Shown: positions 4,608-30,089, numbered from the stretch's first letter. The stretch: DNA of 32,000 nucleotides from Synechococcus sp. A15-28 (GCF_014280175.1 NZ_CP047931.1:1470001-1502000); one strand, 5' to 3'. The notes: generated by a model from the letters alone, not told the origin. Numbers and translations: made by a program.

Positions 4608-4613
4608 CAGGCT

Positions 4614-5001: not shown

Positions 5002-5862
5002 TCAAGGATCTTCTCTAGAAATCTCCGATCCCAGAAACTCAGTGAAACCTGCCGAGATAATGCCGATTGGGATTGCAATCACAGCGATCCCGCATATGGC
5101 AGTCAATGCTGCCACAAGTTTCCCCAGTGCTGTTATGGGATAGGTGTCCCCATATCCAACTGTCGTCACTGTAACTACAGACCACCACAGGCATCTTGGT
5201 ATTGATCCAAACTGTTCTTCTTGTACACGCCCTTCCACTAAAAACATTAATACACTACTAATAAAAATAACAACTCCTGAATAAATGGCGGAAATTTGAA
5301 GTTCTTCTTTTTTGGCAGTCAGCGCTTGGTTGAAATACTTGATGCTTTTCCGAAAACGCTTTGAACGACCAACTCTTCCGATCCGCGTCAGTCTAATAAT
5401 CCTGAGCAAATACAGTTCAGGGGAGATGAGACCAAAGATGGTTGGTGCGATTGCAATTAGATCCAGGATTGCCAAAGGCGTAATGGCGTAGTCCAAAGCA
5501 CCTTGAATGCCTCTTCTTGCTCCGTCCCTAAGTGGAGCGACCCAGAGTCGCGCTACATATTCGATCAGGAAGATTATTGATAACGCGACATCAGCTTTTA
5601 CGAGTAAATCTCCCAGTGATGATCGAATAACAGGTTCTGTAGCGATGATCGCCACTCCAATGGACAAGACGATCATCAGACCTATTGCCTTGACGGCATT
5701 AGTCGCCCTTCCTTGCTCGTCCGTAGAGTTCAACGAGTGGAAGAGTTTTTCTCGGAGAGTGTGCACGACAACTGGACTTTGCCAGTCCTTATCTTGCTGT
5801 AACTCATCGTTCGGCGCCACTAGCATCCTTTTCGCCAGATCCCCCCCCCTTGACCCAAACAC
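5002..5862 (-). CDS. Voltage-gated (6TM, Kv/KvAP-like) potassium channel
   Basis: The selectivity filter TVTTVGYGD is present. An S4-like segment has regularly spaced basic residues (LRIIRLTRIGRVGRSKRFRK). There are six hydrophobic helices. The start is uncertain: GTG at 5862 or ATG at 5826. Confidence 0.85.
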   Translation of the reverse strand: MFGSRGGDLAKRMLVAPNDELQQDKDWQSPVVVHTLREKLFHSLNSTDEQGRATNAVKAIGLMIVLSIGVAIIATEPVIRSSLGDLLVKADVALSIIFLIEYVARLWVAPLRDGARRGIQGALDYAITPLAILDLIAIAPTIFGLISPELYLLRIIRLTRIGRVGRSKRFRKSIKYFNQALTAKKEELQISAIYSGVVIFISSVLMFLVEGRVQEEQFGSIPRCLWWSVVTVTTVGYGDTYPITALGKLVAALTAICGIAVIAIPIGIISAGFTEFLGSEISREDP

Positions 5863-11027: not shown

Positions 11028-11073
11028 TTAGATAATACTTACTTGTGTTCTATTTGGAACGCATTAGTTGACT

Positions 11074-11537: not shown

Positions 11538-12731
11538 TTAGAGAAGATTCACAGCTCGCTCCAATTCACTCCAAGGAGTAGCGCCATATGCCATAGAAAT
11601 AGAATTAGGTGTGTGGCCAAGCAAAGTAACGACAACAGCCTCATTCATGTTATGTGCTCTCAATATGGTTGCAGCTCTGTCTCTAAAACCTTTGGGAGTT
11701 ATTCCAACTATTTTCCTACACGGCTTTGAAAGATTGACTCCCCAACGCTTATTAGCCCCTTGGTACTGACCCGGCCACAAAAGATCTTTCCTTTCGCGCA
11801 TCTCAATAGACAATGACTTCAATCTTGGATGAATTGGAATTGACCTCGCAGAGGAATCGCTCTTCAAGGGTCTTAACGCATTGGGTCGGATCAGTATCCG
11901 GTCATCAAGCAGGTCTTCTGCTTGCAAGCCAGCAATCTCAGCAAGTCGAGCACCAGTGAAATAAAGGAACTTGAAAATCTCTATCTGTTGACCCGACCCA
12001 TTCCACTGTGATGGATCGGTGATTGTGACATCAAGTTTTCTGACTTTAACGACCTTGATCCGTGTATTTAAGCCCTTGAATATATGGGTGCAATCGGGTC
12101 GTAGTTCACAAAGCACTGACCAGAGTCCACAAAGAAATGCGAGACGCGTTTTGACAGTTGAAGGACTTAGACGTGACAGCAACGAGGAGCGATAAGCAAC
12201 GGCGTGTTGGCGTGAAGCAGACGTTGGGTACGTGACTGCAGAGTGTGCCAAGAAATCGTCCAAGGCAGCCTTCCAAGCGATCTCCGTCCGTGCTGCAGGT
12301 GACTTCAGTGCCTTGGCCTGCTGGATCAGCTCTTCTTTGGAAAGGTGGTCTGGTGGCTGCTTCTCACCCTTCAAAATCGCTCTGTATCTGGCCGCTTGAT
12401 CGAGAGTTATCGACCCTTCCTCAACCTCAACATCACAGCCAGTAAGCAGCGTTTCAACAATTTCTGGATCAGACAGATCAAACCGTTGAGGAACCAAATC
12501 AATTAGCTCGTCGCCAGTCAGTGAAACCTCATTGCGAGCCTCAGCAATCAGTCGATCTGTCTTTGCTGCAAATGCAGCTGAGAGCCTCTGTGCGACGCGG
12601 TAGGTCGATCCAGCAGCCTCAACCCAAATCGTTTTGCCTATGACTGGCTGAACGTCCTTGGGAACGCCACGCTGCAACTGGTAACCATTGCGGGCCTGAC
12701 GCACGTATGTCGGATGCTTCCGAAAAGGCAC
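11538..12731 (-). CDS. int: Tyrosine recombinase / phage-type integrase
   Basis: The 397-aa product has box I (FTGARLAEI), LKSDSSARSIPIH, box II (GFRDRAATILR...LLGH) and a C-terminal Tyr (SMAYG). The gene abuts attR. Confidence 0.9.
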   Translation of the reverse strand: MPFRKHPTYVRQARNGYQLQRGVPKDVQPVIGKTIWVEAAGSTYRVAQRLSAAFAAKTDRLIAEARNEVSLTGDELIDLVPQRFDLSDPEIVETLLTGCDVEVEEGSITLDQAARYRAILKGEKQPPDHLSKEELIQQAKALKSPAARTEIAWKAALDDFLAHSAVTYPTSASRQHAVAYRSSLLSRLSPSTVKTRLAFLCGLWSVLCELRPDCTHIFKGLNTRIKVVKVRKLDVTITDPSQWNGSGQQIEIFKFLYFTGARLAEIAGLQAEDLLDDRILIRPNALRPLKSDSSARSIPIHPRLKSLSIEMRERKDLLWPGQYQGANKRWGVNLSKPCRKIVGITPKGFRDRAATILRAHNMNEAVVVTLLGHTPNSISMAYGATPWSELERAVNLL

Positions 12732-13995: not shown

Positions 13996-15498
13996 TCAGC
14001 GTCGCTGTCTCAGGGCCTGCTCCGCCTGCTCGCGGTCATCAAAATGCACCTTCTCCGTACCGAGAATTTGATAGTCCTCATGGCCCTTGCCGGCGATCAG
14101 CACCAGGTCCGCTGGTGATGCTTCAGCAATGCCCTCCGCAATCGCCCTGGCCCGGTCGCGCTCAACCCTGAGTTCGGTGCCGGATGGAATGCCCGCCACC
14201 ACATCGGCCAGGATCTGATCAGGATCTTCTGTGCGCGGGTTGTCAGAGGTGACCACGACCCGATCCGCCAACCGGGCCGCAATCGCTGCCATCTGAGGCC
14301 GCTTGCCCCGATCCCTGTCGCCGCCGCAGCCAAACACGCAGACCAGCCGACCCGCCGCAAATGGTCGAGACGCCGCCAGTGCATTCTCGAGACCATCGGG
14401 GGTGTGGGCGTAATCCACCAGAACAGTCGGCAACGCGGCAGCTTCAGCCCCCTCAACGACCACCCGTTCCATGCGGCCGGGCACACCCCGGAAGCTACCG
14501 ACGGCCTCCAGCAGCGGATCGAGGGGCAGACCCCGTTGCAGCAGGACCCCCACCGACTGCAACAGGTTCATCAGGTTGAAGCGCCCCAGCAGCGGAGAAT
14601 GGAATGCGCAGGATCCAACGGGACTGATCAAGCGTCCGCTGACGCCCTGTCCGGTCATCTGCAGGTCAGCCATCTGCAACTCCGCCTGCGGGTCCGCCAG
14701 GGAGCTGCACCAGCAGCGCTCCCCCAGTTGCTCAGCAAGCCGGCTCCCCCAGGGGTCATCGCCATTGACCACCGCCGCTGGTCCATCTCCCTCCAGCAGT
14801 GGAGCCGCAAACAGACGAGTCTTGGCCTCGAAATAGGCCTCCATCGTCTGGTGGTAATCGAGATGGTCCTGGGTGAGGTTGGTGAACACCGCCCCCGCGA
14901 AGCGACACCCCGCCACCCGATCCTGCACCAGGGCATGGGAACTCACCTCCATCGCCGCCAGCTGACTCCCCGCCCTGGCTGCGTTGGCCAGCTGGGCCTG
15001 CAGGCGATCCGCCACCGATGTGGTGTGGGTCGCCGTGATGCTGTGGCCAGGCCATCGGTTGACCAGGGTGCCGAACAGGGCGGTGGGCCGACCGGCTTGG
15101 ACCGCCAGATGCTCGATCAGATGGGTTGTGGTGGTTTTGCCATTGGTGCCGGTGACACCGATCAGCCCCATCCGATGGCAGGGATGTCCCCAGTAAGCGG
15201 CCGCCAATTCACCGACGGTGCGCGCCACCGAATCCGCTACCACCACCACCGGCTGGCCAGCCCCGGGGGGGAATTCTTGCGCTGCGGCAGGACCGATCAC
15301 TGCTGCTGCGGCGCCATCCTGCAGCGCCTGATGCCAGAAACGACCGCCATCAACCCGCTCGCCCGGCAGCCCTAGGAACAGTGTTCCCTCTCCCACCAGG
15401 CGCGAATCACTGGTGATGGACGAGATCGGGAGGTCAGCCAATGCGGCAGGGACGTCCAGGCCGACATCGCGCAGCAGGGCATGCAACGACTGACCCAT
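13996..15498 (-). CDS. murE: UDP-N-acetylmuramoyl-L-alanyl-D-glutamate--2,6-diaminopimelate ligase
   Basis: [14 protein letters not shown], the DNPR motif ([11 protein letters not shown]) and Mur ligase architecture are present. The start is set at the ATG at 15496-15498 (MGQSLHALL); the ORF track extends the ORF upstream. Confidence 0.9.
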
Positions 15499-15523
15499 GC
15501 GATCGGCCACAACTCGGCTCGTT

Positions 15524-15805
15524 CTAAGCCGATCCAGAGGGGTTGGACAGCGCCCGTTGCAACCAGTTGAACAGGCCCTCACCGGACAGCCGCGGCGAGA
15601 CCCGTGGCAGCTCTCGGCCCTGGACCATCAGCACCGGCACTTCAAGGTCGTAGCGGGCCTTCAGTTCGGGTGTCACGCCAGCCCCATCCAGGTCAATCAC
15701 CTGCAGGGTGACCCCGAGCCCCATCAGGTTCAGGGCTTCGAGGCGCTGTTCGAGCCCCTCACACAGGCAGCAGCCCTGGCGGCTGTAGAGCACCAGCTCC
15801 TGCAT
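15524..15805 (-). CDS. Glutaredoxin-like (DUF836/thioredoxin-fold) protein
   Basis: The 93-aa product begins [18 protein letters not shown]... and contains a CxxC motif. It is the C-terminal part of the 375-aa track ORF, and its start overlaps the yidD stop (TGATG). Confidence 0.75.
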
Positions 15806-16119: not shown

Positions 16120-16159
16120 GCCCAAACCCGGCACGAATCCAACCTCTACCTTCCCATCC

Positions 16160-16768
16160 ATGGCTCGATACCGCGGCCCTCGTCTGAGGATCACGCGGCG
16201 CTTGGGAGACCTCCCTGGTCTCACCCGGAAGGCCGCAAAGCGGTCCTATCCCCCCGGTCAGCACGGCCAAGCCCGTCGCAAGCGCTCTGAATACGCAATC
16301 CGTCTCGAAGAAAAGCAGAAGCTTCGCTTCAACTACGGCATCTCCGAGCGTCAGCTCGTGCGTTACGTGAAGAAAGCGCGCGCCCAGGAGGGTTCCACCG
16401 GAACCAACCTGCTCAAGCTGCTCGAGAACCGTCTCGACAATGTCTGTTTCCGCCTGGGCTTCGGTCCCACCGTGCCCGGCGCCCGTCAGCTGGTGAACCA
16501 CGGCCACGTCACCGTCAACGGCCGCGTCACCGATATCGCCAGCTACCAGTGCAAGGCCGGCGATGTGATCGCCATCCGCGAGCGCAAGTGCAGCAAGCAG
16601 CTGGCTGAAGCCAACCTCGAGTTCCCGGGTCTGGCCAACGTGCCGTCCCACCTGGAACTGGACAAGGCCAAGCTCAACGCCAAGGTCACCGGTCGCTGTG
16701 AACGCGAATGGGTTGCCCTGGAGATCAACGAACTGCTGGTGGTGGAGTACTACTCCAGAAAGGTTTAA
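16160..16768 (+). CDS. rpsD: 30S ribosomal protein S4
   Basis: [22 protein letters not shown]...[10 protein letters not shown] matches S4. The true ATG is 14 codons inside the track ORF. The last codons and the stop are supplied by island-side sequence. Confidence 0.95.
16749..16764. repeat. 16-bp direct repeat ACTACTCCAGAAAGGT at the rpsD 3' end (also at 20099-20114)
   Basis: The match is an exact 16-mer. The sequence turns AT-rich right after it here. At 20099 it is followed by a stop codon and a strong terminator. Confidence 0.7.
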
Positions 16769-16904: not shown

Positions 16905-18326
16905 CTAATTAATTAGCGTCTGATACATTACCCTTGAAAGCAATCTAATGCCATCGTCATCTTTCAAAGTTTGAAAATCAGGCATATTATTGTAAAAAAT
17001 TGACAAATCTTCTAGCAATTCAGGATGAAATTGGAAAGTAAACGATTTTCGTATTTTTTGAGTTTGAAAATCTAAATAATTTATGCAAGTAGCTGCTACT
17101 TCTGTGCAGACTTCTCCATTTATACGAGTTGAGCAAACAATTTCAACAGATGTTGGTAGATTCAAAATCCAAGATAGATCTGATATCAATATCTTCTTTC
17201 TTATAGGATAAACTGCCTTGTGCAATTCTCCGAATGCCCAATTAGCAAAAAGAATTGCTTCCTGGTTAACTACATCGCTATGAAACATTTCTATATGGAG
17301 GTTTTTTTCATATGTAATAAATTTTTCGACAACACCCAGTTCATGCTCGTGAGATAGCTCATGACACATAAGTAAATTTGAAAATTCATCACTAGGATGC
17401 AGTCCAGAATGCGAATATTTCTTTAGGTCTACTTTGCCGACCTCAGGCTTATGGTTAAGCGCAACTGCAAAACAACTATCATTCCAGCCTTTTGCAACTA
17501 TCTTTTCATTTCTATAAACACATAAACTTTCTCCAACCAAGATAATTTCCGTACACTTCTTCCTGAGGTTGTCTAGATAGTAATTACTATCTTCAGAATT
17601 AATCAAAAATGATAAACAGTCATCAGTCGCTCTTTTGATTATCTCTATATGAGCCTGAGCAGCAAGTTGATGACCTAGGCAAATAAATATAGCAGGAGAT
17701 GAGTTTGAATCCCTTGAAAGTATAATTTCCTCAGCAACTTCTTGCAAATCTTCTAGCTTAATACTTGTATCATCAAAGCTTTTGCAATCTTTTAAAGTTG
17801 GATAACCCCCCTCTACGAAACACATAATACAGTTTTTAATCAATTCTATTAAAAGTTCATTATTTAAAGGACCAGCCTCCCAGAGTGGTATCAATATTGA
17901 ATCGCAGTCGGCTATATATTGAGACAAGTACGCAATATTTATAGATGCTTTAACCTCATTCCCATATGGATTTACGCCGACATGCTTAGCGGGCTCTATT
18001 ATACAAATAGAATTTCTATAAATTCCAGGATATTTTAGAATTTCTTTTAAATCATTATTCGATCTTACAACTCTTTCCAAAGGACCTTCTTCTCCCCATT
18101 GACTATTGGCAAGTAAATCCAATTTCTTATCATAAAAAGGTTCAAGCAAACTATTTGAATCTCTATCATTTATGAAATCGGCCAAAAGAAATTCAATACT
18201 TGTTCGATTTGATTTTCCAGGCCTGAAAAAGCCAGCCATAGCTTTAAATACTAACATTTTCCATATTAGCTTCTTTGTCAACCGTATTTTAGTATCTAGT
18301 ACGACAGAGTGGCATAGCATTAGCAC
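16905..18326 (-). CDS. Atypical class-I glutamine amidotransferase-like protein (473 aa)
   Basis: A nucleophile-elbow motif AIFICLGHQ lies near residue 216 and FQFHPE near residue 434. The gene is very AT-rich. The spacing and the N-terminal extension are much larger than in canonical GATase1 domains. The start is uncertain (GTG 18326 or ATG 18320). Confidence 0.7.
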   Translation of the reverse strand: MLMLCHSVVLDTKIRLTKKLIWKMLVFKAMAGFFRPGKSNRTSIEFLLADFINDRDSNSLLEPFYDKKLDLLANSQWGEEGPLERVVRSNNDLKEILKYPGIYRNSICIIEPAKHVGVNPYGNEVKASINIAYLSQYIADCDSILIPLWEAGPLNNELLIELIKNCIMCFVEGGYPTLKDCKSFDDTSIKLEDLQEVAEEIILSRDSNSSPAIFICLGHQLAAQAHIEIIKRATDDCLSFLINSEDSNYYLDNLRKKCTEIILVGESLCVYRNEKIVAKGWNDSCFAVALNHKPEVGKVDLKKYSHSGLHPSDEFSNLLMCHELSHEHELGVVEKFITYEKNLHIEMFHSDVVNQEAILFANWAFGELHKAVYPIRKKILISDLSWILNLPTSVEIVCSTRINGEVCTEVAATCINYLDFQTQKIRKSFTFQFHPELLEDLSIFYNNMPDFQTLKDDDGIRLLSRVMYQTLIN

Positions 18327-19917: not shown

Positions 19918-20098
19918 GACAGATCATACGCCCGGGTCAAGCCCATGAACGTGCGTAACAACCTCGCTTAATCGCCCGCGCAGGTTTGTCGCTATTTGTC
20001 TTTGTTGAGCCAAGTGCCTGATGGGACAAGGCATATACTCAAACCCTACTCAAACTCTAAAAACAGGGTCAAAAAGCAATGCAGCACTGAAAACGTGG

Positions 20099-20118
20099 AC
20101 TACTCCAGAAAGGTCTGA
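20099..20118 (+). pseudogene. Remnant A of the rpsD 3' end (..YSRKV-stop)
   Basis: ACTACTCCAGAAAGGTCTGA encodes the same C-terminal residues as 16749-16768, with a TGA stop. Confidence 0.7.
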
Positions 20119-20148
20119 TCCGTTTCAAGACCTCTGTGTCCCCCGATG

Positions 20149-20181
20149 CGCAACCCTGGGTTCAGGGTTGCGTTTTTCTTT
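20149..20181 (+). terminator. Orphaned rho-independent terminator following rpsD remnant A
   Basis: The stem is CGCAACCCTG-GGTT-CAGGGTTGCG, followed by TTTTTCTTT. Confidence 0.75.
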
Positions 20182-20312
20182 GGCTGATCCCCAGATACTG
20201 CAGGCGCTCACAAGCCGGGACGGTGCAGAAAACTTTTCCAAACTCCAGCCCCCATTAACCGAAAAAGGTGGCAGGACTTTTTCTTAAGGCAAGAGAATCT
20301 GATTCCAAGCAG

Positions 20313-20504
20313 TCACTCGGCGATTTTCAAAGACTGCTCTAAATGATTAACGTGTCTTTCCAGGGTGATTTCACGACGGTGCATCTCAAGCTCACGCTCA
20401 TGGGTTTTCTCATCGATCCTGGTGCGGCCGCCATTCATCATCTCCGAGTAAGTCAGAGCTCTTGGCTTTTTTCGAGGAAGGTCATGTTCGTGCATCCAAG
20501 TCAC
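20313..20504 (-). CDS. Hypothetical small charged protein
   Basis: The 63-aa ORF has a GTG start or an ATG at 20495. The ACGTAATGACC motif lies 15 nt upstream. Confidence 0.35.
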   Translation of the reverse strand: MTWMHEHDLPRKKPRALTYSEMMNGGRTRIDEKTHERELEMHRREITLERHVNHLEQSLKIAE

Positions 20505-20663
20505 TGATTAATCGACTAACGTAATGACCAACCTAGTGGCACTCAAGGAAATGTCACCCTAATGCACCAATTCAGACCAGAATCTTAAGAATTCGGCTCA
20601 GACAATTCAAACAAGCGCCCAACACATTAATTCAAGACCTATCAACCAAGTGAGCTCATCCCC

Positions 20664-21785
20664 TTGAACAGTGACGCCACCACAAACCTTCGTTCAAGCG
20701 CACTTAGGCGCATTGATTTGAACATCAAGCCTTACATAAAAAGTGATGACATAATTGCCGCTTGGCAAATCATTAGCACGATAATCCCGTTAATCATATG
20801 CTGCATTGCAATTGGCAATATCACCAGTCAGCTAACATTAGTTTCAGTCATTCTAACCCCAGCACTGTTTCTATTAATAATCCTATTTTTGAGTAGAAGC
20901 TTTTCGTTGATGCACGACTGCGGTCACCACAGCTTATTCAGGTCAAAAACTGCTAATCGGATTGCCGCCTTTGCCTTGAGCATTATCCATGCAATGCCTC
21001 ATCACCCCTGGTCTAGGGGCCATGCATTTCACCACAAACACAATGGTAATTGGAACCGCTACAGAGGCCCGTCCGCTTTAACAACGCTTCGCGAGTACAA
21101 GGCAATGAACAAAGGCTCTCAATTCATTTACCAACTCTTGCGGCACCCCATATTACTTCTTCCGGGAGGTTTTTACTATCTCGTTATTAAACCAAGAGCT
21201 GCGCTACTCCTTGGACTCATTGAGTTTGTCGTCAAAGCAGTAGCCGATGGATTTCGCAAACTTTCAAACGGACATAACTTCAGCATACGTTCGTTTTTAA
21301 ACAATCACAAATCAAGCTTCTTTTATACCAAAGAGGAAGTTTACGACACTATTGCCAATACCACGTGCGTTGCACTCGCCTGGTACTTTATTGGGAGCAC
21401 GATTGGTCACTGGCATTTCTGGATTTTATACATCTCAGCCATGAGCGTCAGTGCAGCGATCATGATTGCTGTATTTTTTATTCAACACAACTTTCCAGGA
21501 TCCTATACTAGCAGCGACGAAAATTGGGACTACTTTAAAGGCGCCATCGAAGGCTCATCTTTTCTCATTATGCCTCGTTTCCTAAACTGGTTTACAGCAG
21601 ATATTGCTTACCATCATGTTCACCATTTATCCGAAAGAATCCCTAATTACCGCCTACGCATGTGCCATGAACACAACGAGAAAAAATTCGGCAGCGTTAG
21701 GCGACTGCATCTGCATGAATTCCGGAACTGTTTTTCATTGATCCTTTGGGACGATGAAACCCTTCAACTCACCTCAATCGAATGA
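20664..21785 (+). CDS. Membrane fatty-acid desaturase family protein
   Basis: Three histidine boxes are present: HDCGH, HAFHH (HAFHHKHN) and HHVHH. Several transmembrane segments are present. The start (TTG) is uncertain. Confidence 0.85.
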   Translation: MNSDATTNLRSSALRRIDLNIKPYIKSDDIIAAWQIISTIIPLIICCIAIGNITSQLTLVSVILTPALFLLIILFLSRSFSLMHDCGHHSLFRSKTANRIAAFALSIIHAMPHHPWSRGHAFHHKHNGNWNRYRGPSALTTLREYKAMNKGSQFIYQLLRHPILLLPGGFYYLVIKPRAALLLGLIEFVVKAVADGFRKLSNGHNFSIRSFLNNHKSSFFYTKEEVYDTIANTTCVALAWYFIGSTIGHWHFWILYISAMSVSAAIMIAVFFIQHNFPGSYTSSDENWDYFKGAIEGSSFLIMPRFLNWFTADIAYHHVHHLSERIPNYRLRMCHEHNEKKFGSVRRLHLHEFRNCFSLILWDDETLQLTSIE

Positions 21786-21930
21786 AAATGGCTTTGATAT
21801 CAAAGCAATATGCGAAAAAAAGCATTCATGTTGACTGCATTAACGGAAGAATTTATGCTCAATTAAAATATTGAGTTCTAAACACTCCGGACGCCGAGAG
21901 CGCTAGTGGGTGGCCCTGAGGACTGACGCA

Positions 21931-22026
21931 TGTTGGTGGTGAGGCATACCCACCCGAAGTTCCGGTGCGCTTCGACACCCTTGTGCCCCCGATGCGCGAC
22001 GCTGGTGAAAGGACTGCAATTTTTTT
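21931..22026 (+). repeat. Remnant B: decayed copy of the rpsD tail plus a terminator-like region
   Basis: TGTTGGTGGTGAGGCATACCCACCCGAAGTT resembles rpsD TGCTGGTGGTGGAGTACTACTCCAGAAAGGTT. TGTGCCCCCGATGCGCGAC matches TGTGTCCCCCGATGCGCAAC at 20135. Both are followed by a T-run and TTGGCTGA. Confidence 0.45.
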
Positions 22027-22674
22027 TTGGCTGAATCTGAGGCTCTGCAGAACCTCAGCTCCCAGCAATGGTGGGGGCTGATTCATCCAGTACTGATGAT
22101 CCTGTTCGTCTACCCGGTGACAGGGGCAACCATCCGCCTGGGAATCCTGGCGCGGGAGAGGAGGTTGAAGATCAACCCAATTGCGGAAACCGTGCCCATC
22201 GAACATGCCCAGCACGGCGCCTGGGTGACCGGTGGAGTGCTGGTGGCGCTGCTGATCAGCCTCAGCCACAGCCTGGTGGGTGGAGCCAACGGCATGCTTC
22301 TGCTGTTGGGGGTTGTCACGCTGATCGGATACCTCTCCCTACTGCGCAGCCGACTGATCTGGCAGCGGCTGCTGGCGGGCTCCATCTGCTGGGGAGCGTT
22401 ATTGACCCTTGGGCTGCAACCGACCGTGGAACGGCTCAGTGATCAGCCCTGGACGGTACTGTTCTGGCAATCCCATTTCTGGATGGGATGGATTCTCACC
22501 GGACTGCTGCTCAGCTCAACAGCAATTCAACCGCTGATCGCTCAATGCCCGCGGCTACGGCGCTGGCACGTGGCCACCAACGTGGTGGTGGCGTTGCTGC
22601 TTGCGATGCAGGCCATCTCGGGCAGCCGCAACCTGGTGATCAGCGGCCTGCAGACCATCCATGGGGCAAGCTGA
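22027..22674 (+). CDS. DUF4079-family integral membrane protein (paralog of 3090-3800)
   Basis: HPVLMILFVYP, LGLQPTVERLSDQP..FWQSHFW and MQAISGSRNL are present. The start is TTG. Confidence 0.75.
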   Translation: MAESEALQNLSSQQWWGLIHPVLMILFVYPVTGATIRLGILARERRLKINPIAETVPIEHAQHGAWVTGGVLVALLISLSHSLVGGANGMLLLLGVVTLIGYLSLLRSRLIWQRLLAGSICWGALLTLGLQPTVERLSDQPWTVLFWQSHFWMGWILTGLLLSSTAIQPLIAQCPRLRRWHVATNVVVALLLAMQAISGSRNLVISGLQTIHGAS

Positions 22675-22692
22675 ACCTATGTAGGAGCACCC

Positions 22693-22917
22693 ATGTCCAA
22701 AGCAAGAGATCTGATCAATGCCCATCTGTATCCGGTGCTGGCCACGTTTGCCGTGATCTATGGAGCGATTCAGATCGCACCCATTGCACAGCAGGCGCGT
22801 TACTTCAACCGTTGCGTCGAAGCAGCACCCCAAGGAGTCAACACAGCAAGGGCTGTGATGTTCTGCCACGGCCGGCCAGCGATGCTCAAAAAGACAAATA
22901 ACGAATTAAAGCTCTGA
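22693..22917 (+). CDS. Hypothetical small protein with one hydrophobic helix
   Basis: The 74-aa ORF has an AGGAG Shine-Dalgarno sequence 5 nt before the ATG. Confidence 0.5.
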   Translation: MSKARDLINAHLYPVLATFAVIYGAIQIAPIAQQARYFNRCVEAAPQGVNTARAVMFCHGRPAMLKKTNNELKL

Positions 22918-23033
22918 ACAAAATCAAGCTCATCAATTCAACAAAAACAGGAGGTTGAGCATTGTTCAAAGAACACTGTTAACGTCCTCGTGCTCGGCCG
23001 TGACATCCTCAAACTGATTGGCGAAGTCAAGGT

Positions 23034-23240
23034 ATGCCAACAATCTCTCGCCAGAACGCACAAAGTCAGCAGAATTGTCAATTCAGTCATGAGTCACCCG
23101 ACATGCCCAACTGGATCAAGCGCTCTTTGTCAGCTGGTGTCGCAGCGGGCACAGCACTCTTCACATTTGCTGTGAACGTCGCCTGGAATGTCTGCGCTGT
23201 AGTTGGGGCATCCATCCTCATCGGCGCAGTATTCGTCTGA
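23034..23240 (+). CDS. Small hydrophobic protein (alternative start at 23103, MPNWIKRSL...)
   Basis: The C-terminal half, AGVAAGTALFTFAVNVAWNVCAVVGASILIGAVFV, is membrane-like. Its stop overlaps the next ATG. Confidence 0.4.
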   Translation: MPTISRQNAQSQQNCQFSHESPDMPNWIKRSLSAGVAAGTALFTFAVNVAWNVCAVVGASILIGAVFV

Positions 23241-23374
23241 TGGGGGATTTACTGAAAGGACTGAAAACAGCATTGATGACATCGACTGTTGCTATTTTCC
23301 TGTTTGTTGCACCAGTTTTCGCCACTATCATCAAAGGGTTGATAACCGCGACAAGCATTGTTTTTGGCGTTTAG
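23240..23374 (+). CDS. 44-aa hydrophobic peptide, translationally coupled to the preceding ORF
   Basis: Hand translation gives MGDLLKGLKTALMTSTVAIFLFVAPVFATIIKGLITATSIVFGV. The TGATG overlap is at 23238-23242. It is below the track cutoff. Confidence 0.35.
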   Translation: MGDLLKGLKTALMTSTVAIFLFVAPVFATIIKGLITATSIVFGV

Positions 23375-23499
23375 GCTCCATCGACAAAAAGATCTGCATG
23401 TCCTGGGGTGCCTCAACTTACGCACTCCCAATACTTAAAAAGAAACTCATATTTCTTCATCAAGCAAATAATTCAGTAGGGTGCTTTCTTTGAACTGAC

Positions 23500-23691
23500 T
23501 TGTTGCCTGAGAAGACCACAATTCATGGGCAGTGGGTAGACATCTCCTCAAATAGTCGCATTATTTGTCTAATTAATCTACCCTTCGCTAACCACCCGAA
23601 CAAAGGACCAGGCTTTGTTTATGATTTCTTTTCAACTAAAGAGGAAGAAGACCTGCTGAGTCACGAGACGTTTTTCAAAGGGATCAAATGA
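23500..23691 (+). CDS. Hypothetical small protein
   Basis: The 63-aa ORF starts with TTG and overlaps the next ORF as ATGA. Confidence 0.3.
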   Translation: MLPEKTTIHGQWVDISSNSRIICLINLPFANHPNKGPGFVYDFFSTKEEEDLLSHETFFKGIK

Positions 23692-23870
23692 ATAAAAAAT
23701 TCATCATCTTTTGCGCCTTAGCCATCCCTTTGATCGTCCTTGTGTTGATCAAGGTGACCCAGAAATCCGAACCTTGTCCAACGATGGAACAAATCAAGGC
23801 CGCCAAACAATCAAATCCTGAACTATTTGATCGCTATCTTCATGGCTTTGAATACCAGCAATGCCGGTGA
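23688..23870 (+). CDS. Small signal-anchored or secreted protein
   Basis: MNKKFIIFCALAIPLIVLVLIKV forms an N-terminal hydrophobic segment. The product is 60 aa. Confidence 0.45.
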   Translation: MNKKFIIFCALAIPLIVLVLIKVTQKSEPCPTMEQIKAAKQSNPELFDRYLHGFEYQQCR

Positions 23871-24226
23871 GGGATCAAGAAAGATTTTAGTTTTCACATT
23901 CTTTTAAACGGCTTTATGTTGAGATGACCACGCATTGTGCCTGACGCCTCGCTTGACTTAAGTCACTGGCATCCATCCATCCGATGACAACGTCGCCAAG
24001 AGCACGGTTGAGCAGCTTCTTGGCACACCGCTGGAAGGAAATGGGGGAACCCTCGCTGATGCGACAGCACAAATACTCATTACTGTTGAGAAGCATTCGT
24101 GCAGAAAAACGGTTGGTCGCCTTGGAATTACTTGATCTCATGCTTGAAGATACCTGCCAACAACTCGACAGCATCTGAATCGACGTATGACATTGACCAT
24201 CAGTTTCCCCTGATCAAGTCACACTG

Positions 24227-24589: not shown

Positions 24590-24613
24590 AAAAAAGCCGC
24601 CACAACGGGCGGC
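24590..24613 (-). terminator. Terminator-like hairpin on the minus strand with no obvious upstream ORF
   Basis: The minus strand reads GCCGCCCGTTGTGGCGGCTTTTTT. Confidence 0.5.
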
Positions 24614-24843
24614 CGGGTGATGGGGATATCCACAACCTAGCTCAGAAAGCCAGTGGTGCCAGCCTTTTCCAGAGCCAAGGTGACAAAGAACACATCCCGG
24701 CTGTCCACAACCTGTGGAACGTCAAGGCGACGCCATCAAGTCTTTACAGAAATCCCACTAGATCTAGTGCATTTTTAAGATCGCCCGGTCATCAGGCCCT
24801 ATCTTTGGTGCGTTGGCTGGGTGATGGGGATCGCCTGTCCTGT

Positions 24844-24872
24844 AGCCCCCCTGATGTTGAGGGGGGCTTTTT
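24844..24872 (+). terminator. Strong terminator on the plus strand more than 330 bp after the nearest plus-strand stop
   Basis: The stem is AGCCCCCC-TGATGTTGA-GGGGGGCT, followed by TTTT. Confidence 0.65.
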
Positions 24873-24967: not shown

Positions 24968-25345
24968 TCAATTCATGACGCTGATGCTCGTATCCGCTGG
25001 CTTTCTCGGCCTTCTCTGGCTGACGCAAACCCTGGTGAGACGAAACCTGGACAAACGCCAGGAGCCGCGATGACATGGCCATGACCATGCCGGGCCGTCT
25101 CGGTGACGCGCCTGCCTGATCAGCTCATACTCTTGGTCCGACAGCTCCTGCATGAGAAACACGGAGTTGAGGCGACGGTGATAACGGCAATAGCCGAGAG
25201 AGGCATGAACACCAATGAGCAGTCCCCCAAACAGCAGCAACAGCGACTGATCGGCGGAGGCCCCCACCACCGAGGCAAAGCCCCAGGTGAGCAAGAGCGC
25301 CAGGAGAGCACTGCGGATCAACCGTCGCAAGGGAAGGAAGACCAT
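24968..25345 (-). CDS. Hypothetical two-helix membrane protein, last gene of the maf-mscS-Erv operon
   Basis: MVFLPLRRLIRSALLALLLTWGFASVVG... lies 13 bp downstream of the preceding stop codon (25361-25363). The C-terminal part looks low-complexity and Arg-rich, so its extent is uncertain. Confidence 0.45.
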   Translation of the reverse strand: MVFLPLRRLIRSALLALLLTWGFASVVGASADQSLLLLFGGLLIGVHASLGYCRYHRRLNSVFLMQELSDQEYELIRQARHRDGPAWSWPCHRGSWRLSRFRLTRVCVSQRRPRKPADTSISVMN

Positions 25346-25360
25346 GGACACCCTTGCTGA

Positions 25361-27604
25361 CTAGTTCTCAGTGAACTGGCCACTGCGCGCCAGGATCTCC
25401 TCAGCCGCACTGAAGTGAGGCTCCTCCAGCACCAGATCCTGGTTGTAGCGGTAGTTCTCGTGCAGAAACCTGGACTGTGCCACAGCTTCTTCCACGCCGT
25501 TGATGGCACCGACTGCCCGTGAGCGCACGCTCTTCTGCTGCTCCAGGTCGTCGGCATGCAGTGAGAGCTGCAGTTCATCCCGCAACACCGACAGATGAGC
25601 GGCGCTCTTCACCACGCCATAGATGCGTTGAACCCGATCCCGCTCGATCGATTCCACCCCCAGGGTGTGGGCCCGTTCCAGTTCGGAATCCAGACTCGGC
25701 CAGTAGCGAGAGGTGTAATAAGCACCGGAGTCCTGGTGATACCAGGCTTCACTGCGGGCGATGGAGGAAGACACGGTGTTGTGCAGCTTCCACAGGAACA
25801 AGCGCAGCGATTCACCATCGCTGACCCGGTCGAGCTTGTCCTGCAGGGAAACCTCAATGGTGCTTGTGGCCTCATCCGATCCCAGCAGCAGGTACTCGAT
25901 GGGATACATCGACACCTCGCGGTTGCGCACCACGTAGCGATTGAGATGGAAACGGCAATACGGGCAGGGATACATCGTGGCCAGTGCAGCGAAGAAAGCC
26001 TTGAACGCCTCCACCGATTGCTGCTGCTGCCCATCCGGTTGGTCTGCGATCAGTTCCGCGCTGGTGTGCATGAAGCGCCAGGTCGCGGGGCCGATGTAAT
26101 AGGGGAAGCTCACCCGCATCTGGCTGGCCTCCACGTCATGCCGGCCGACGTGCAGATCCAGGAAGGCGACGTACTGACACAGGAAACCGGATTCACGCCC
26201 GAATTCCTCACGCTCCCGGCGTTTCTGAACACCGTTGAGATAGTGACGCGTCAGCTCCCAGGCCCGCTTCAGCTCCTTCTTCACGCCAAGAGGACGGGAA
26301 TTGAAGGCCTCTTCAGTGGCGTGGCCATAGAGATCGAACTCGCCTGCGGCATGGCGTTCGGCGAACCAGGCATTGAGATCGGCATCATCGGCGTCGTCCC
26401 AGGCCGAGATGTCGTCCTTGGTCACGACTGAGCTCGCCCGCAGCAACAGTGGCATGAACTCGTCGTACCAGTAAGCCGTCGGCATGATCGATCCGGCGAA
26501 GCGCTCATCGTCGGGGTCTACGATCACGCGCTGCCAGCTCTCGTGATACGGACGGCTTGATGCCGGTTTCTGATGATCCAGCTCAGCGGTGACCTCGCGA
26601 TGGTCATCCAGCTGGCGCAGGCGATTCAGCTCATGGCTCTGCAGATCCTCATTGGTGACCTGATCCGGGCTGTGGCCATGCAGCGCCGCCGTGAGCAACA
26701 CCTCCAGCACCACGGAAATGATCTGATGGTGATGGTCGAGCTCCGCCAGTTCCTGCTCCAGCCGACCCTCCGCCTCCAGCATCGCCTCGCTGGGAGACAT
26801 TGACTCCCAGTTGGCCATGCGCTCGCGCAAGGCCTCTTCAGCACCATTCACCGAAGCCCGCAGGCTTTCGAAGGGCTCCTCAGCGCCAGGCTCAACAATG
26901 CCAAGGGAGAGGTAGAGATCCACAGCCGCATTCACGAACCGAACAAAGTCCGGAATCGTGTAGGGAAGGTCGTAGGCCCGGAGATGGGTCTCGGAATTGG
27001 CGGAATAGCTCTCGCGGAAACTGCGGTAGGCCGCACCCTGGATCAATCGGAACCAACCGATCTGCATCTGCAGCGGCGACGTGCCCTTGTGATCACCCTT
27101 GTGACCCCGATCTGAAAGGGAGGCACCGCGGGACACCGCGTGGGAATCAACGGCTCGATGCCCGCCGGTGTAAGCGCGTGGATGGGCTTCGAACCCTTCG
27201 GGCAGGTAATCCAGCAGTCGCTGGAGGTCAATGCGTTCTGAGCCATCCCGTGCCATCTCGATCGCGATGGCATCGGCCGTCTGCTCGGACACCTCAAACA
27301 GATGGATCAACCGTTTGAGATCCTCCAGCTCGATCCAGCCATCACCGTCCTGATCGAGCAGTCGGAACGCCTCGCGGGCCTTGAGATCGGCATCCCCCAC
27401 CTGGAGAGCCAACAGGATGCGCCAATCGTTGAGGGTGATGGCTCCATCCTTAAGCCGGTAAGCGTCAATGGCGCCCTTCAGGTCGTCCACGGTCATGTCC
27501 GCTCCGCCAGCTTGCAGCCGGTCAGCCATGAGCTCCGCCGTCAACCCGCTGGGGGGCAAATAGTCGAACAACCTCTCAAAGGTGACCGATGCCATTGCAG
27601 CCAT
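25361..27604 (-). CDS. EF-hand calcium-binding plus Erv1/ALR-type sulfhydryl-oxidase-like multidomain protein (about 747 aa)
   Basis: A canonical EF-hand loop, DQDGDGWIELEDL, is present. The Erv/ALR signature is TWRFMHTSAE...YPCPYCRFHL...LWKLHNTVSSSI. The start is placed at MAAMASV (27604 or 27595) so that the gene does not overlap mscS. Confidence 0.8.
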   Translation of the reverse strand: MAAMASVTFERLFDYLPPSGLTAELMADRLQAGGADMTVDDLKGAIDAYRLKDGAITLNDWRILLALQVGDADLKAREAFRLLDQDGDGWIELEDLKRLIHLFEVSEQTADAIAIEMARDGSERIDLQRLLDYLPEGFEAHPRAYTGGHRAVDSHAVSRGASLSDRGHKGDHKGTSPLQMQIGWFRLIQGAAYRSFRESYSANSETHLRAYDLPYTIPDFVRFVNAAVDLYLSLGIVEPGAEEPFESLRASVNGAEEALRERMANWESMSPSEAMLEAEGRLEQELAELDHHHQIISVVLEVLLTAALHGHSPDQVTNEDLQSHELNRLRQLDDHREVTAELDHQKPASSRPYHESWQRVIVDPDDERFAGSIMPTAYWYDEFMPLLLRASSVVTKDDISAWDDADDADLNAWFAERHAAGEFDLYGHATEEAFNSRPLGVKKELKRAWELTRHYLNGVQKRREREEFGRESGFLCQYVAFLDLHVGRHDVEASQMRVSFPYYIGPATWRFMHTSAELIADQPDGQQQQSVEAFKAFFAALATMYPCPYCRFHLNRYVVRNREVSMYPIEYLLLGSDEATSTIEVSLQDKLDRVSDGESLRLFLWKLHNTVSSSIARSEAWYHQDSGAYYTSRYWPSLDSELERAHTLGVESIERDRVQRIYGVVKSAAHLSVLRDELQLSLHADDLEQQKSVRSRAVGAINGVEEAVAQSRFLHENYRYNQDLVLEEPHFSAAEEILARSGQFTEN

Positions 27605-27639
27605 CAGGAAAGCAATCCAGTGACTTGAAGTTAATGAGA

Positions 27640-29394
27640 TCAGCGGCCTCCGGCCGTACCCGGCAGCACGCTGCCGAGATCCAGCCCGTCCGCCAGTTGA
27701 ACCCCTCGGCGATGCAGCGCCCGCAGAGCACGGCGTTGAAACTCCCGTTCCGTCGTCCATTGCTCGCCGGCCCGAGTCACCAGCAGCACCTGCATCTGCA
27801 CACCGAGAGCCGTGGTGCGCTTGATGCCCCGAAGGATCGGATCCCCCAGCAACCGATTGCCCCAGACAGGGTCCACACAGAAGTCTTCGATCTCAAGGGA
27901 CAACGTCCGGTAGACGATCTCCAGATCCGTTTGACGGTGGGAAATCACAAAGGTGACCAGGCTTCCGGAGCGCAGCTTCGTGTGGTTTCGCATCTGCAGG
28001 ATCGAGGAATTGTCGAGGATGTTCATCCGTTGATCCAGGCAGCGGATCTGGGTGCTGAACAGGCCCATCTCGATCACTTCTCCTTCGATGCCCGCCACCT
28101 CGATCCAATCGCCAACGGCGTAACGGTCCTCCAGCAACATCACCAATCCAGCCGAAAAATCCCTCAGCAATCCCTGGAACACAAACGCCAGCGCTCCCAG
28201 CAAGGCACCACCGGCCAGCACCAACGACACCGACGCGGAACGCACACCGGGGACATCCAGCAGCACCCAGAGCAACACCACGCCGATCCCGACCACATTG
28301 ATCAGCCGATGGGTTGTGCTCAGCAAACTGCGATAGCGCTGCTGACGCCGGGCCTGCAGCCGCCGGGGGACATCCACATCCCCCGACCACTGGCTGAGCA
28401 GGAAGGTGCTCAGACTGCGCAACAGGAACGTGGCCAGGGTCACCGCCAGAAACTTGATCACAGCAAGCGATGGCTGCAGCACCAGCTCAATCCCTAGAGG
28501 AACTTTCCCGGGGATGGCCACCACCAGGACTCCGATCATCAAGACCAGCAGGTACAGCATCAGCAGCAGCAGCAGCACAGCGATGGTCAGAGCCTGTTCG
28601 GCGTGTAACCGGGTCTCCCCCCTGCGGTCAGAACGGCCCTTGGCCCGAAGCTCGCCATGCAGGCGTGAGGTGCGTTGCCGCAGTCGGCGCCAGAGCAGCA
28701 GCATGGCCGCAAACAACAACAGCAGCATCAGTTCCGTCACCACGACCAGACGGAAGCGTCGGGCCAACTGCGGCGGTGCGTAGATCCTCCGGGCATGGTT
28801 CAGGCGCCCCTCCAGGCGTTCCCGCCAGGCCTGGGCCAGCGCGAGCTCCCGCGCCCCATTGATCTCGGCATCGGCACGGGTCACGGTGAGAAGTGGGAAC
28901 GGTTGCTCACGTCCCGGCAACCGCGCCGCCAGCTGATAGGGACCACTGCCGTCCCGCAGCACCTCCAGGGTCAGTGGCGTGCCGGAACGATCCAGGCCGT
29001 AGCGCTGACCCGCCGTGCAGACGTGAGCGTCGGACTGAAGCAGGCGGTCCAGCATCCACTCGCTGAGCCGCTCGCCGAAACTGCAGAGCTGGTTCGGGTC
29101 GTAGAGGGCGCGCAGATTCCCTTCAATCACCCTGGCCCTGAGCGACGCCTCAATCCCGCTCGGCTCCCCCAGCTGTACCGGGCTGGCAACGGTGATGGCA
29201 GGCACCCCCAGAACCCGAACCTTGGCCAGCTCGTATTTCCCCTCGAACTGCGCCTGCCTGTCCTGTTGTTGCGCAGGGGAGCCCGCCGGACTTGGTGGAA
29301 TGAAATCGAGGATCGAGGCCTGAGCCACCAGGGGCATCAACGCCAACAGCGCTGCCGTTAACCAAAGACCCAGGCGTCGTCTGAAGCGAAACAC
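27640..29394 (-). CDS. MscS-family mechanosensitive ion channel with a large N-terminal periplasmic/transmembrane extension
   Basis: The MscS core LLEDRYAVGDWIEVAGIEGEVIEMGLFSTQIR is present, along with multiple transmembrane helices and a signal-like N-terminus. The start is GTG at 29394 or TTG at 29400, which overlaps the maf stop. The track ATG at 29451 overlaps maf. Confidence 0.85.
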   Translation of the reverse strand: MFRFRRRLGLWLTAALLALMPLVAQASILDFIPPSPAGSPAQQQDRQAQFEGKYELAKVRVLGVPAITVASPVQLGEPSGIEASLRARVIEGNLRALYDPNQLCSFGERLSEWMLDRLLQSDAHVCTAGQRYGLDRSGTPLTLEVLRDGSGPYQLAARLPGREQPFPLLTVTRADAEINGARELALAQAWRERLEGRLNHARRIYAPPQLARRFRLVVVTELMLLLLFAAMLLLWRRLRQRTSRLHGELRAKGRSDRRGETRLHAEQALTIAVLLLLLMLYLLVLMIGVLVVAIPGKVPLGIELVLQPSLAVIKFLAVTLATFLLRSLSTFLLSQWSGDVDVPRRLQARRQQRYRSLLSTTHRLINVVGIGVVLLWVLLDVPGVRSASVSLVLAGGALLGALAFVFQGLLRDFSAGLVMLLEDRYAVGDWIEVAGIEGEVIEMGLFSTQIRCLDQRMNILDNSSILQMRNHTKLRSGSLVTFVISHRQTDLEIVYRTLSLEIEDFCVDPVWGNRLLGDPILRGIKRTTALGVQMQVLLVTRAGEQWTTEREFQRRALRALHRRGVQLADGLDLGSVLPGTAGGR

Positions 29395-29396
29395 GC

Positions 29397-30041
29397 TCAA
29401 CCCGAGGTTGTCTGGACCATTTTGCTGTCCCTGAGGACGGTTCGCAGCCACGGAAGGCTCAGACCGATCACGTTTGAATAACAGCCTTCTAATCCCGCAA
29501 TCAGGGGAGCACCGCGGCCCTCCAAAGCGAAACCGCCGGCGCAGTGAAGTGGCTCCCCGGTGGCGACGTAGGCGTGGATCTCCTCCTCCGTGAGCGCAGC
29601 GAAGTGGACCCTGGTGCTGATGCAGATCAAACGGTTCTCACCGCCGCGAACCAGCAGGGCGTGACCGGTGAGCAGCGAACCGCTGCCTCCGGCCATGCGC
29701 CGCCAGCGCGCGACAGCCTCCTCCGCATCCTGAGGTTTGCCGAACACCTCCCCCTCGAACAGCAGCAGCGAATCGCACCCCAAGACCAGGGAGATGTCAG
29801 GGTCAATGTCCTCCCGAACGGCAGAGGCCTTGGCCAGGGCCAACTGCTGCACCAGCTGGGAGGGATCGTCGTTACGGATGGTGCTTTCATCCACGCCGCT
29901 GACGCGCACGCGATGGGGGATCTGCGCCAGTTCAAGCAGCCGGCGGCGGGCCGGCGATGCAGAAGCCAGAAGCAGCACGGAATCACTCCGGCAGGAACAC
30001 TCCGTAGGCTGCCAGCACTGGGAGATTCCGCCATCGAGCAT
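29397..30041 (-). CDS. maf: Maf-like nucleoside-triphosphate pyrophosphatase / septum formation protein
   Basis: [15 protein letters not shown]...GCDS...GKP......AGGFA.EG matches the Maf family. The start is the ATG at 30041. Confidence 0.85.
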
Positions 30042-30089
30042 CCCACTGAGCTTCTTGATCAACGCAGCCGAGCACGGGCCCTGCGCTCC

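Follow-up and report, generated by a model that had tools for sequence, protein, structure and literature searches.

What does a bacterial gene that joins an EF-hand module to an Erv/ALR-like sulfhydryl oxidase encode, and does it work together with the mechanosensitive channel gene that precedes it? The question is raised by a locus of Synechococcus sp. A15-28 (GCF_014280175.1), located in a stretch of 32,000 nucleotides (nt) (NZ_CP047931.1:1470001-1502000) that we analyzed as a whole and refer to as the window. Erv/ALR oxidases are usually assigned to the organelles of eukaryotes and to large DNA viruses, and bacterial disulfides are thought to be made by DsbB or VKOR, outside the cytoplasm. 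An earlier description of the locus made from the DNA alone, hereafter the sequence-only reading, had proposed a fusion protein of roughly 747 amino acids (aa), in an apparent operon with mscS.

The gene, which we call erv here (25361..27604, minus strand), was called as an open reading frame (ORF) of 747 aa plus the stop codon. The longest possible ORF would encode 799 aa, but the start at the ATG at 27604 is supported because homologs of ~750 aa begin at the equivalent position; the length proposed initially was thus correct. Our results make it probable that erv is a stand-alone gene for a soluble, cytoplasmic, multi-domain Erv/ALR flavoenzyme, with a single CPYC active site and an ancestral Ca2+ switch that has largely decayed.

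The Erv/ALR domain and its active site

A predicted FAD-binding Erv/ALR domain was found at residues 498-640 (25685..26113, minus strand). It scored 43 bits (E 5.9e-11) with the Pfam family Evr1_Alr (PF04777), whose curated cut-off is 27.6, and residues 470-650 alone matched Arabidopsis Erv1 (2hj3, 3.7e-6), yeast Erv2 (1jr8, 4e-5) and rat ALR (1oqc, 6e-5) in the PDB. The same Erv1, Erv2 and ALR targets were recovered in a search with the family profile. The PDB alignment runs from I-G-x-A-T-W-x-F-x-H-T through Y-P-C-x-x-C-x-x-H, with a second, weak stretch in which LWKLHNTVSSS is set against WLCHVHNTVNRS. The motifs W..MH, CPYC and LWKLHNTV, which the sequence-only reading had taken as an Erv/ALR signature, are all present in the translation, and the significant Evr1_Alr match, above its curated cut-off, bears out this assignment.

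The Pfam match, which HMMER splits into two stretches, takes 113 residues to cover 81 profile positions because a conserved, family-specific insert of ~39 aa (residues 560-598; 25811..25927, minus strand) parts the CxxC helix from the HNxV helix. This insert holds the invariant Y567-PIEYL-x-x-G575, which is also kept in the giant-virus-like protein P0168 described below.

We then assessed the conservation of the active site, C547-P-Y-C550 within Y545-P-C547-P-Y-C550 (25955..25966, minus strand). Both C547 and C550 were invariant (51/51) in a set of non-redundant family members whose identity to the query is 51-91%. No further cysteine was conserved among these 51 proteins, C476 being Cys in 34 and Ser in 17. 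The second, or shuttle, cysteine pair that is typical of cellular Ervs, though not universal, is therefore absent among the conserved cysteines. The analysis was extended to 79 orthologs from species genomes of marine Synechococcus, Prochlorococcus, freshwater Cyanobium-like strains, Nostocales, Oscillatoriales and alphaproteobacteria, whose identities were 40-80% overall and 40-61% between groups. Despite this divergence, G505, P506, W509, H513, Y545, C547, P548, Y549, C550, R551 and H553 in the first half of the domain, and F603, W605, H608, N609, V611, S612, R617, W621, R633 and W635 in the second half, were identical in 78 of the 79. The CxxC is thus conserved in orthologs, both close (51/51) and genome derived (78/79), as the sequence-only reading needed it to be. 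Among 61 distant relatives from a library clustered at 50% identity, 58 have a CxxC; it takes the form C-P-[Y/F/H]-C in 55, with R-x-H next to it in nearly all of them.

In yeast Erv1, the main contributors to FAD binding are Gly91, Trp95, Tyr128, Cys133, Phe137, His162, Val165, Lys171, Arg182 and Trp183 (PMC4721541). Their counterparts in the window protein are G505, W509, Y545, C550, L554, H608, V611, R617, R633 and W635. The HMMER alignments place Erv1 Gly91, Trp95, Tyr128, Cys130/133, His162 and Val165, whereas the equivalents of Lys171 and Arg182-Trp183 (R617, R633 and W635) were placed by spacing and not by a printed alignment. Because the CPYC and the FAD-contact positions are invariant in 78 of 79 orthologs, the domain is likely to be an active flavin thiol oxidase rather than a decayed one. 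Nor does the missing shuttle disulfide speak against activity, since many viral Erv oxidases have the FAD-proximal pair only, and some of them also carry extra folded domains (PMC3509050).

The calmodulin-like and helical domains

The N-terminal region, residues 1-145 (27170..27604, minus strand), was delimited by Foldseek searches with the full AlphaFold model and by family-profile matches. Pfam EF-hand_6 matched with 30.4 bits against a cut-off of 25, and EF-hand_7 with 29.7 bits, slightly below its cut-off of 30. The family profile matched caltractin and calmodulin at 7e-11 over residues 74-141, with the loops aligned to those of calmodulin and centrin. Foldseek returned calmodulin, NCS-1 and calaxin across 130-155 columns with probabilities of 0.97-0.99. 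In the model, residues 1 to ~145 thus look like a two-lobed calmodulin-like domain, of which only the second lobe is recognizable by sequence. As both the EF-hand_6 and the PF04777 matches exceed their cut-offs, the fusion initially proposed is genuine, and judging by the orthologs the attachment of an EF-hand domain to the enzyme is a trait of the family.

Are the loops competent to bind Ca2+? Loop 1, DQDGDGWIELED (27320..27355, minus strand), lies in the EF-hand_6 match and is near canonical, with D1, D3, D5, G6, I8, E9 and D12; Asp at position 12, in place of the usual Glu, is acceptable but atypical. Loop 2, ARDGSERIDLQR (27218..27253, minus strand), was identified by alignment to the calmodulin and centrin loops. 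Its positions 1 and 12 are occupied by Ala and Arg, respectively, and it should not bind Ca2+. Orthologs of filamentous cyanobacteria have two textbook loops, e.g., DEDGSGQITADE and DHDGDGSIDFEE. Of 79 loci, 38 have a canonical loop 1 and 17 a canonical loop 2; both are canonical in 17 loci, all filamentous or related. Key ligands have been lost in all picocyanobacteria, most of whose orthologs are devoid of the loop 2 ligands at positions 1 and 12, and in the Rhizobiales/Rhodobacterales clade of alphaproteobacteria.

These data bear on the possibility that the protein of this strain is a Ca2+-gated thiol oxidase, in which loop 1 would bind Ca2+ or Mg2+ and the calmodulin-like domain would control access to the CPYC. 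The ligand set of loop 1 and its EF-hand_6 match above cut-off are consistent with such gating, as is the retention of EF-hand Pfam matches in the close relatives P0001-P0003 and P0049, and the textbook loops of the filamentous orthologs indicate that Ca2+ control is probably ancestral. However, Asp is found at position 12 of loop 1 in only 4 of the 51 family members, the others having S, A, L, Q or V, and even the ortholog of locus L003, 81% identical to the query, has Thr there. The partner loop has no ligands at positions 1 and 12, and selection on the Ca2+ ligands has evidently been relaxed in picocyanobacteria. We therefore consider Ca2+ gating in Synechococcus sp. A15-28 unlikely. The sequence-only reading, which had pointed to a canonical Ca2+-binding loop, was right that loop 1 is near canonical but overstated Ca2+ binding for this protein, given the degenerate loop 2 and picocyanobacterial loops. 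From the ligand patterns, Ca2+ control is a reasonable inference for the Nostocales, and the module of Synechococcus sp. A15-28 appears to be drifting toward a structural role. In Nostoc, only two Ca2+-binding proteins have been analyzed and many putative EF-hand proteins are unstudied (2026 CSE paper, PMC13578307); the EF-hand/Erv family belongs among these unstudied cyanobacterial EF-hand proteins.

The remainder of the protein is less easily classified. A linker of low confidence and variable length (residues 146-172; 27089..27169, minus strand) follows the calmodulin-like domain, with a pLDDT below 50 at positions 151-171 and many gaps in the alignment. Next comes a conserved, all-helical middle domain of unrecognized fold, defined from the family alignments (residues 173-497; 26114..27088, minus strand). 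The stretches that vary least across the family are found there, namely, GTSPLQMQIG..RLxQGAAYRSFRxSYSAxxETHLRAYDLPYTI, WQRVIVD, YWYxxFMP and YLNGVQKRREREEFGR. After the Erv/ALR domain, a C-terminal helical domain (residues 641-747; 25364..25684, minus strand), delimited by the alignment and by a long helical hairpin in the model, terminates in an invariant PHF..EE.LARSG. Neither residues 173-497 nor residues 641-747 matched anything in Pfam, NCBIfam, PHROG, PADLOC or the PDB sequences, so that the several hundred unrecognized residues between the EF-hand and Erv parts, noted earlier from the sequence, are indeed there. No NCBIfam model covers the whole protein, and for the middle and C-terminal domains the Foldseek search of the full model against the PDB yielded noise, with no credible fold match. 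We also considered that the middle domain might derive from a pseudo-Erv module as in QSOX; hhalign comparisons of all domain pairs gave probabilities below 1%, and there was no internal duplication.

A membrane or secreted location was rejected as well. No transmembrane (TM) helix was found, the maximal Kyte-Doolittle mean over 19 residues being 1.38, and the N terminus is neither hydrophobic nor signal-like. Because of the absence of a TM-grade hydrophobic window and of a signal-like N terminus, the protein is predicted to be soluble and cytoplasmic.

The protein would thus be composed, in this order, of a calmodulin-like N-terminal domain, a helical domain of ~330 aa, an Erv domain with its C-P-Y-C and ~39-aa insert, and a C-terminal helical domain. 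By analogy with other Erv enzymes, a substrate dithiol would reduce the C547-C550 disulfide, and the electrons would pass to the bound FAD, which would hand them on to O2, with formation of H2O2, or to a different acceptor. Since a shuttle cysteine pair is not conserved, the FAD-proximal disulfide would have to be reached by the substrate itself, as it is in minimal viral Ervs. The large helical domains would most plausibly serve in substrate docking or oligomerization. The EF-hand pair would be an ancestral Ca2+ regulatory module, intact in filamentous cyanobacteria; in picocyanobacteria, this strain included, it would largely have been reduced to a structural domain that keeps one weak metal site at most.

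Several points weigh against this reading. We infer FAD binding and oxidase activity from the sequence, and some features of the known enzymes are not found: Arg92 and Asn166 of Erv1 are replaced by an invariant Pro506 and an invariant Ser612, respectively, and the CX16C structural disulfide of Erv1 and ALR is absent. The AlphaFold model of the full protein, all-helical with helices at 506-520, 524-544, 548-554 and 597-616 in the Erv region, where the known enzymes hold FAD in a four-helix bundle plus a fifth helix, is of moderate quality (pLDDT 73.2, pTM 0.69), and the pLDDT is 58-65 around and after the CxxC and in the insert. A truncated model of residues 488-747 had a low pLDDT of 64.8, below 50 in the CxxC segment; in Foldseek searches against the PDB it returned non-specific helical proteins and no Erv fold match, and the full model matched EF-hand proteins only. 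In addition, an oxidase that makes disulfides and H2O2 has no obvious role in the reducing cytoplasm of a cyanobacterium, and some very streamlined Prochlorococcus genomes carry the gene (L023 and L034, GC 30%).

Gene neighborhood and distribution

The erv gene is the third of four closely spaced genes on the minus strand. It is preceded by maf, for a nucleotide pyrophosphatase (29397..30062; Pfam Maf 8.5e-52, TIGR00172 4.6e-54), and by a gene for an MscS-like channel of 603 aa (27640..29451; PF00924, 2.4e-16), and it is followed by a small, weakly conserved hydrophobic ORF of 127 aa (24968..25351), for which Pfam and NCBIfam gave no family match. The mscS stop codon and the erv ATG are 35 nt apart, the erv stop codon is 9 nt from the start of the small ORF, and maf and mscS overlap by 55 nt, provided that the GTG at 29451 is the mscS start. 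The tight or overlapping packing and the 35-bp spacing described initially are therefore as the ORF coordinates have them. A terminator-like hairpin was sought in the 35-nt gap and none was found. Two strong, terminator-like GC hairpins followed by T-runs lie 3' of the small ORF, at 24844-24868 (plus strand, 9-bp stem) and 24595-24614 (minus strand, 7-bp stem); they are probably where the minus-strand transcription unit and a convergent plus-strand gene end.

To determine whether this arrangement is conserved, we surveyed the neighborhood of erv in the best 80 of 232 matching species genomes, using tblastn with the Maf, MscS, small-ORF and CobQ proteins of the window, together with clustering of the flanking ORFs. 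maf is the upstream neighbor in marine Synechococcus only, 8 marine loci being syntenic in this respect. Two loci of 80, L003 and L006, have mscS in the slot that separates maf from erv. This slot is empty in L004 (72 nt) and L005 (~240 nt), contains the small TM ORF in L001 and L036, and contains an unrelated ORF of 255-269 aa on the opposite strand in L007 and L008. For the small ORF, homologs were detected in just 4 of the 10 marine loci; they flank erv on one side or the other, or are 2.6 kb distant. Beyond marine Synechococcus, none of the 80 loci has maf, mscS or the small ORF nearby, and all-against-all clustering of flanking ORFs revealed no neighbor common to different clades. In freshwater Cyanobium, erv lies near genes for an amidase, a racemase and a polyprenyl synthase; in Nostoc, near those for RtcA, a FAD_binding_4 protein and a hybrid histidine kinase; and in Rhizobiaceae, near those for a GMC oxidoreductase, a ferritin-like protein, TIM-barrel proteins and an ODP protein. 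A guilt-by-association argument thus failed between clades, these neighborhoods being functionally unrelated and having no common theme, and a conserved operon with mscS, maf or the small ORF was rejected over the 80 loci after both approaches.

The sequence-only reading had proposed that erv and mscS form an operon, which in a stronger form would mean that Ca2+ entry or signaling through the channel switches the oxidase on via its EF-hand. The two genes are on the same strand, 35 nt apart with no terminator-like site between them, loop 1 is near canonical and the same gene order is found in L003 and L006. However, the proposed link to mechanosensing did not withstand the synteny analysis, because mscS adjoins erv in only these two of the 80 loci. 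In sister strains the slot is empty or otherwise filled, including by opposite-strand genes; freshwater picocyanobacteria, Prochlorococcus, Nostocales and alphaproteobacteria have no MscS gene nearby; and the EF-hand loops are degenerate in precisely the clade that has mscS next door. We regard coupling to the channel as extremely improbable. Cotranscription of mscS and erv in this strain is plausible, because the 35-nt gap has no terminator-like site, but it would be incidental. We read erv as a stand-alone unit: that mscS, maf and the small ORF lie next to it would be due to a variable intergenic slot of marine Synechococcus and not to a functional operon.

Two clade-specific neighborhoods are of note. 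In two Rhizobiaceae isolates, the Erv gene overlaps by 4 nt an upstream gene of the ODP family, with a metallo-beta-lactamase fold (L035:5075-5896 and L031). The same-strand cluster also includes genes for a GMC oxidoreductase, a ferritin-like protein (PF12902), two xylose-isomerase-like TIM barrels, a PCC domain protein and DUF2938, and it may be a redox operon specific to this clade. In 12 Nostoc-clade loci, including L059:3260-7546, a hybrid histidine kinase of 1428 aa (GAF, PAS, HisKA, HATPase and two receiver domains) is encoded a median of ~600 nt downstream of the Erv gene. This neighbor may be the source of the misnomer "histidine kinase" given to some Nostoc orthologs, and even to a Yasminevirus protein.

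Such neighbors raise the alternative that the protein is a redox or O2 sensor or a signaling scaffold rather than a bulk catalyst of disulfide formation, the FAD and CxxC reporting and the helical domains transmitting. Two thirds of the protein consists of conserved, non-catalytic helical sequence, which would suit a transmitter, and both the Nostoc kinase and the gene overlap with the ODP family, of the oxygen-binding di-iron type, are consistent with sensing. Nevertheless, those neighborhoods are clade specific and unlike each other, the protein has no recognizable output domain and all known Erv-fold proteins are oxidases (PMC3509050, PMC4721541). We hold a sensor function to be very unlikely, and we retain the interpretation of the protein as an Erv/ALR flavoenzyme.

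How widespread is the family? A protein search returned 560 relatives, the best 120 of which are 750-850 aa long or fragments of such proteins. In a scan of one genome per species, a relative was found in 232 of 185,579 species, and the carriers are picocyanobacteria, Nostocales, Oscillatoriales, Rhizobiales and Rhodobacterales. Names given by NCBI and UniRef include "ERV1/ALR-related protein" (Synechococcus sp. MIT S1220 and KORDI-100) and "Erv1/Alr family FAD-linked sulfhydryl oxidase", and Nostoc members are called "histidine kinase", "EF-hand domain-containing protein" or "thiol oxidase". The description of a bacterial EF-hand fusion as unusual was thus overstated, the family being widespread and already named in both databases. 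In the literature we found no functional study of a bacterial Erv, just passing mentions of the Pfam distribution: PF04777 is noted for "some proteobacteria, cyanobacteria" (PMC4555120), and its presence in cyanobacteria and proteobacteria is likewise mentioned in passing in PMC10598087. The window gene is thus an ordinary ortholog of a widespread family that has been annotated computationally and is experimentally untouched.

The proteins of the alphaproteobacterial clade are 50-55% identical to those of picocyanobacteria, versus 40-41% between picocyanobacteria and filamentous cyanobacteria. Because the alphaproteobacterial copies are nearer to the picocyanobacterial ones than the filamentous cyanobacterial ones are, the sequences point to horizontal transfer among aquatic bacteria. 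Contamination as the source of the alphaproteobacterial copies was dismissed, as two Rhizobiaceae isolates, Rhizobium sp. FKL33 and Pararhizobium antarcticum, share flanking genes, with six upstream genes in common at 75-94% identity.

Other features of the window were recorded. A low-GC island at 4000-12731 (GC 0.41-0.48 versus ~0.64 in the flanks) has at its edge a tyrosine-recombinase-like ORF (11538..12731, minus strand; Phage_integrase, 26.8 bits, and DUF6538, both slightly below their curated cut-offs), and it holds a gene for a voltage-gated-type ion channel (5002..5862, minus strand; Ion_trans, 2.2e-26). No tRNA gene was found within the 32,000 nt. Further low-GC patches lie at 16905-18326 and 20000-24000 (GC 0.35 at 17-18 kb and 0.45 at 20-22 and 23-24 kb); they hold an ORF of 473 aa, with a sub-threshold GATase match only, and a fatty-acid desaturase gene (20664..21785, plus strand), and may be small strain-specific islets. 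Another thiol-redox protein of the window, ~9 kb from the Erv gene, is encoded by an ORF of 375 aa at 15524-16651 (minus strand), directly downstream of a Mur-ligase gene (13996..15582); it has a C-terminal glutaredoxin-like domain (PF05768, 4.2e-18).

Giant-virus relatives and known Erv systems

An exhaustive profile search yielded 1252 matches at E<=1e-3 and revealed other architectures: some proteins, of ~620-670 aa, lack the EF-hand domain, and others, of 885-1018 aa or ~1480 aa, differ at their ends. All of them keep the middle domain and the Erv domain collinear, with weak to significant Evr1_Alr matches. Some are encoded in giant-virus-like surroundings. P0175 (1482 aa) comes from a 198-kb contig with 31% GC and densely packed ORFans, along with actin and Exo_endo_phos genes, and the P0168 gene (895 aa) adjoins HSP70, actin, ABC1 and TROVE genes. 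By BLASTP, the window protein is 28% identical to P0168 over 512 aa (E 1e-54), and the match spans GTS..Q.QIG..RL, YWYDEFMPLLL, YPCPYCR.HLN.YVV.NRE, the YPIEY insert and W.(K)(L/F)HN.VSSS. When the full model was compared with predicted viral structures, Foldseek gave a single strong match (E 2.9e-15, probability 1.0, 731 columns), a protein of Yasminevirus sp. GU-2018 (A0A5K0UAY3, 1140 aa) misnamed "Histidine kinase". Because the giant-virus-like proteins share these parts collinearly, the conserved unit, as deduced from the alignments and the model, consists of the helical domain and of the Erv domain, insert included, and the EF-hand domain is a bacterial addition.

The surroundings of some of these relatives are worth recording. 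In the giant-virus-like metagenomic contigs L081 and L083, the long Erv gene is found near actin and isochorismatase-like genes in similar order, which suggests conserved synteny inside a viral lineage. In L084, a JGI contig of 34.5 kb, the EF-hand-less P0135 (618 aa) is encoded among genes whose domains are of eukaryotic type, namely, Hikeshi, NEL E3 ligase, IBR/Ariadne and Sel1, and the host could be a giant virus or an intracellular bacterium.

A broader proposition is that this bacterial "long Erv" family generates disulfides in the cytoplasm of oxygenic phototrophs and of their aquatic neighbors, under the control of Ca2+, and that its virus-shared core marks either a prokaryotic origin of the Erv fold of viruses and eukaryotes or a transfer from virus to bacterium. 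We consider it quite unlikely in this full form. If it were true, "long Erv" would be an enzymatic route to oxidize regulatory dithiols, e.g., those of thioredoxin targets, or to make disulfides in the cytoplasm, and a prokaryotic source or a virus-to-bacterium transfer would overturn the view of Erv as an invention of eukaryotes and viruses. More modestly, should the enzyme prove active, it would act as a flavin thiol oxidase and a source of H2O2 in the cytoplasm of a phototroph, possibly under Ca2+ control. This strongly conserved family, whose active site is invariant, is present in cyanobacteria that abound in marine and fresh waters and in some alphaproteobacteria, and its virus-shared core bears on the origin of the Erv fold. 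The family and its giant-virus relatives are therefore worth biochemical study.

We regard the family as a distinct architectural variant of Erv oxidases. With Erv1, ALR and Erv2 (PF04777; 2hj3, 4e0h, 1jr8 and 1oqc) it shares the G..xW...H of helix 1, the YPCxxC..H of helix 3 and the aromatic..HNxV of helix 4. Unlike them, the window protein is about six times larger, has a conserved insert of ~39 aa between helices 3 and 4, and lacks both the N- or C-terminal shuttle disulfide and the CX16C structural disulfide. Its active site is CPYC in place of CEEC, CGEC or CNWC, and Pro replaces the conserved Arg that follows the helix-1 Gly. Those enzymes reside in the mitochondrial intermembrane space or the endoplasmic reticulum (ER), whereas the window protein is predicted to be in the bacterial cytoplasm.

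QSOX has the domain order Trx-Trx-pseudoErv-Erv. It resembles the window protein in being a multi-domain, single-chain Erv oxidase with a helical domain before the Erv module (PMC3616962); the window protein differs in having no thioredoxin domains and no detectable similarity between its middle and Erv domains (hhalign, below 1%). CSE, a Ca2+ sensor of filamentous cyanobacteria, has an EF-hand pair with canonical 12-residue loops, like those of the Nostocales orthologs (PMC13578307), but it is a stand-alone sensor of 77 aa, whereas the EF-hand pair of the window protein is degenerate and forms the N-terminal domain of a predicted enzyme.

The viral Ervs, such as mimivirus R596, baculovirus Ac92 and ASFV pB119L, also have an Erv core fused to helical, domain-sized segments of novel or unrecognized fold, and many of them have a single FAD-proximal disulfide and act in a cytoplasm (PMC3509050). 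Their extra domains have no sequence relationship to those of the window protein. The R596 core (3gwn) matches at E 1.2 only, and the window family is cellular, i.e., bacterial, and carries an EF-hand domain. In Yasminevirus A0A5K0UAY3 and the giant-virus-like proteins P0168, P0170, P0171 and P0175, the EF-hand domain is replaced by different N-terminal regions and the C termini differ too, with identities of 20-28%, but these proteins share with the window protein the collinear middle domain, Erv domain, YPIEY insert and CPYCRxHLN motif.

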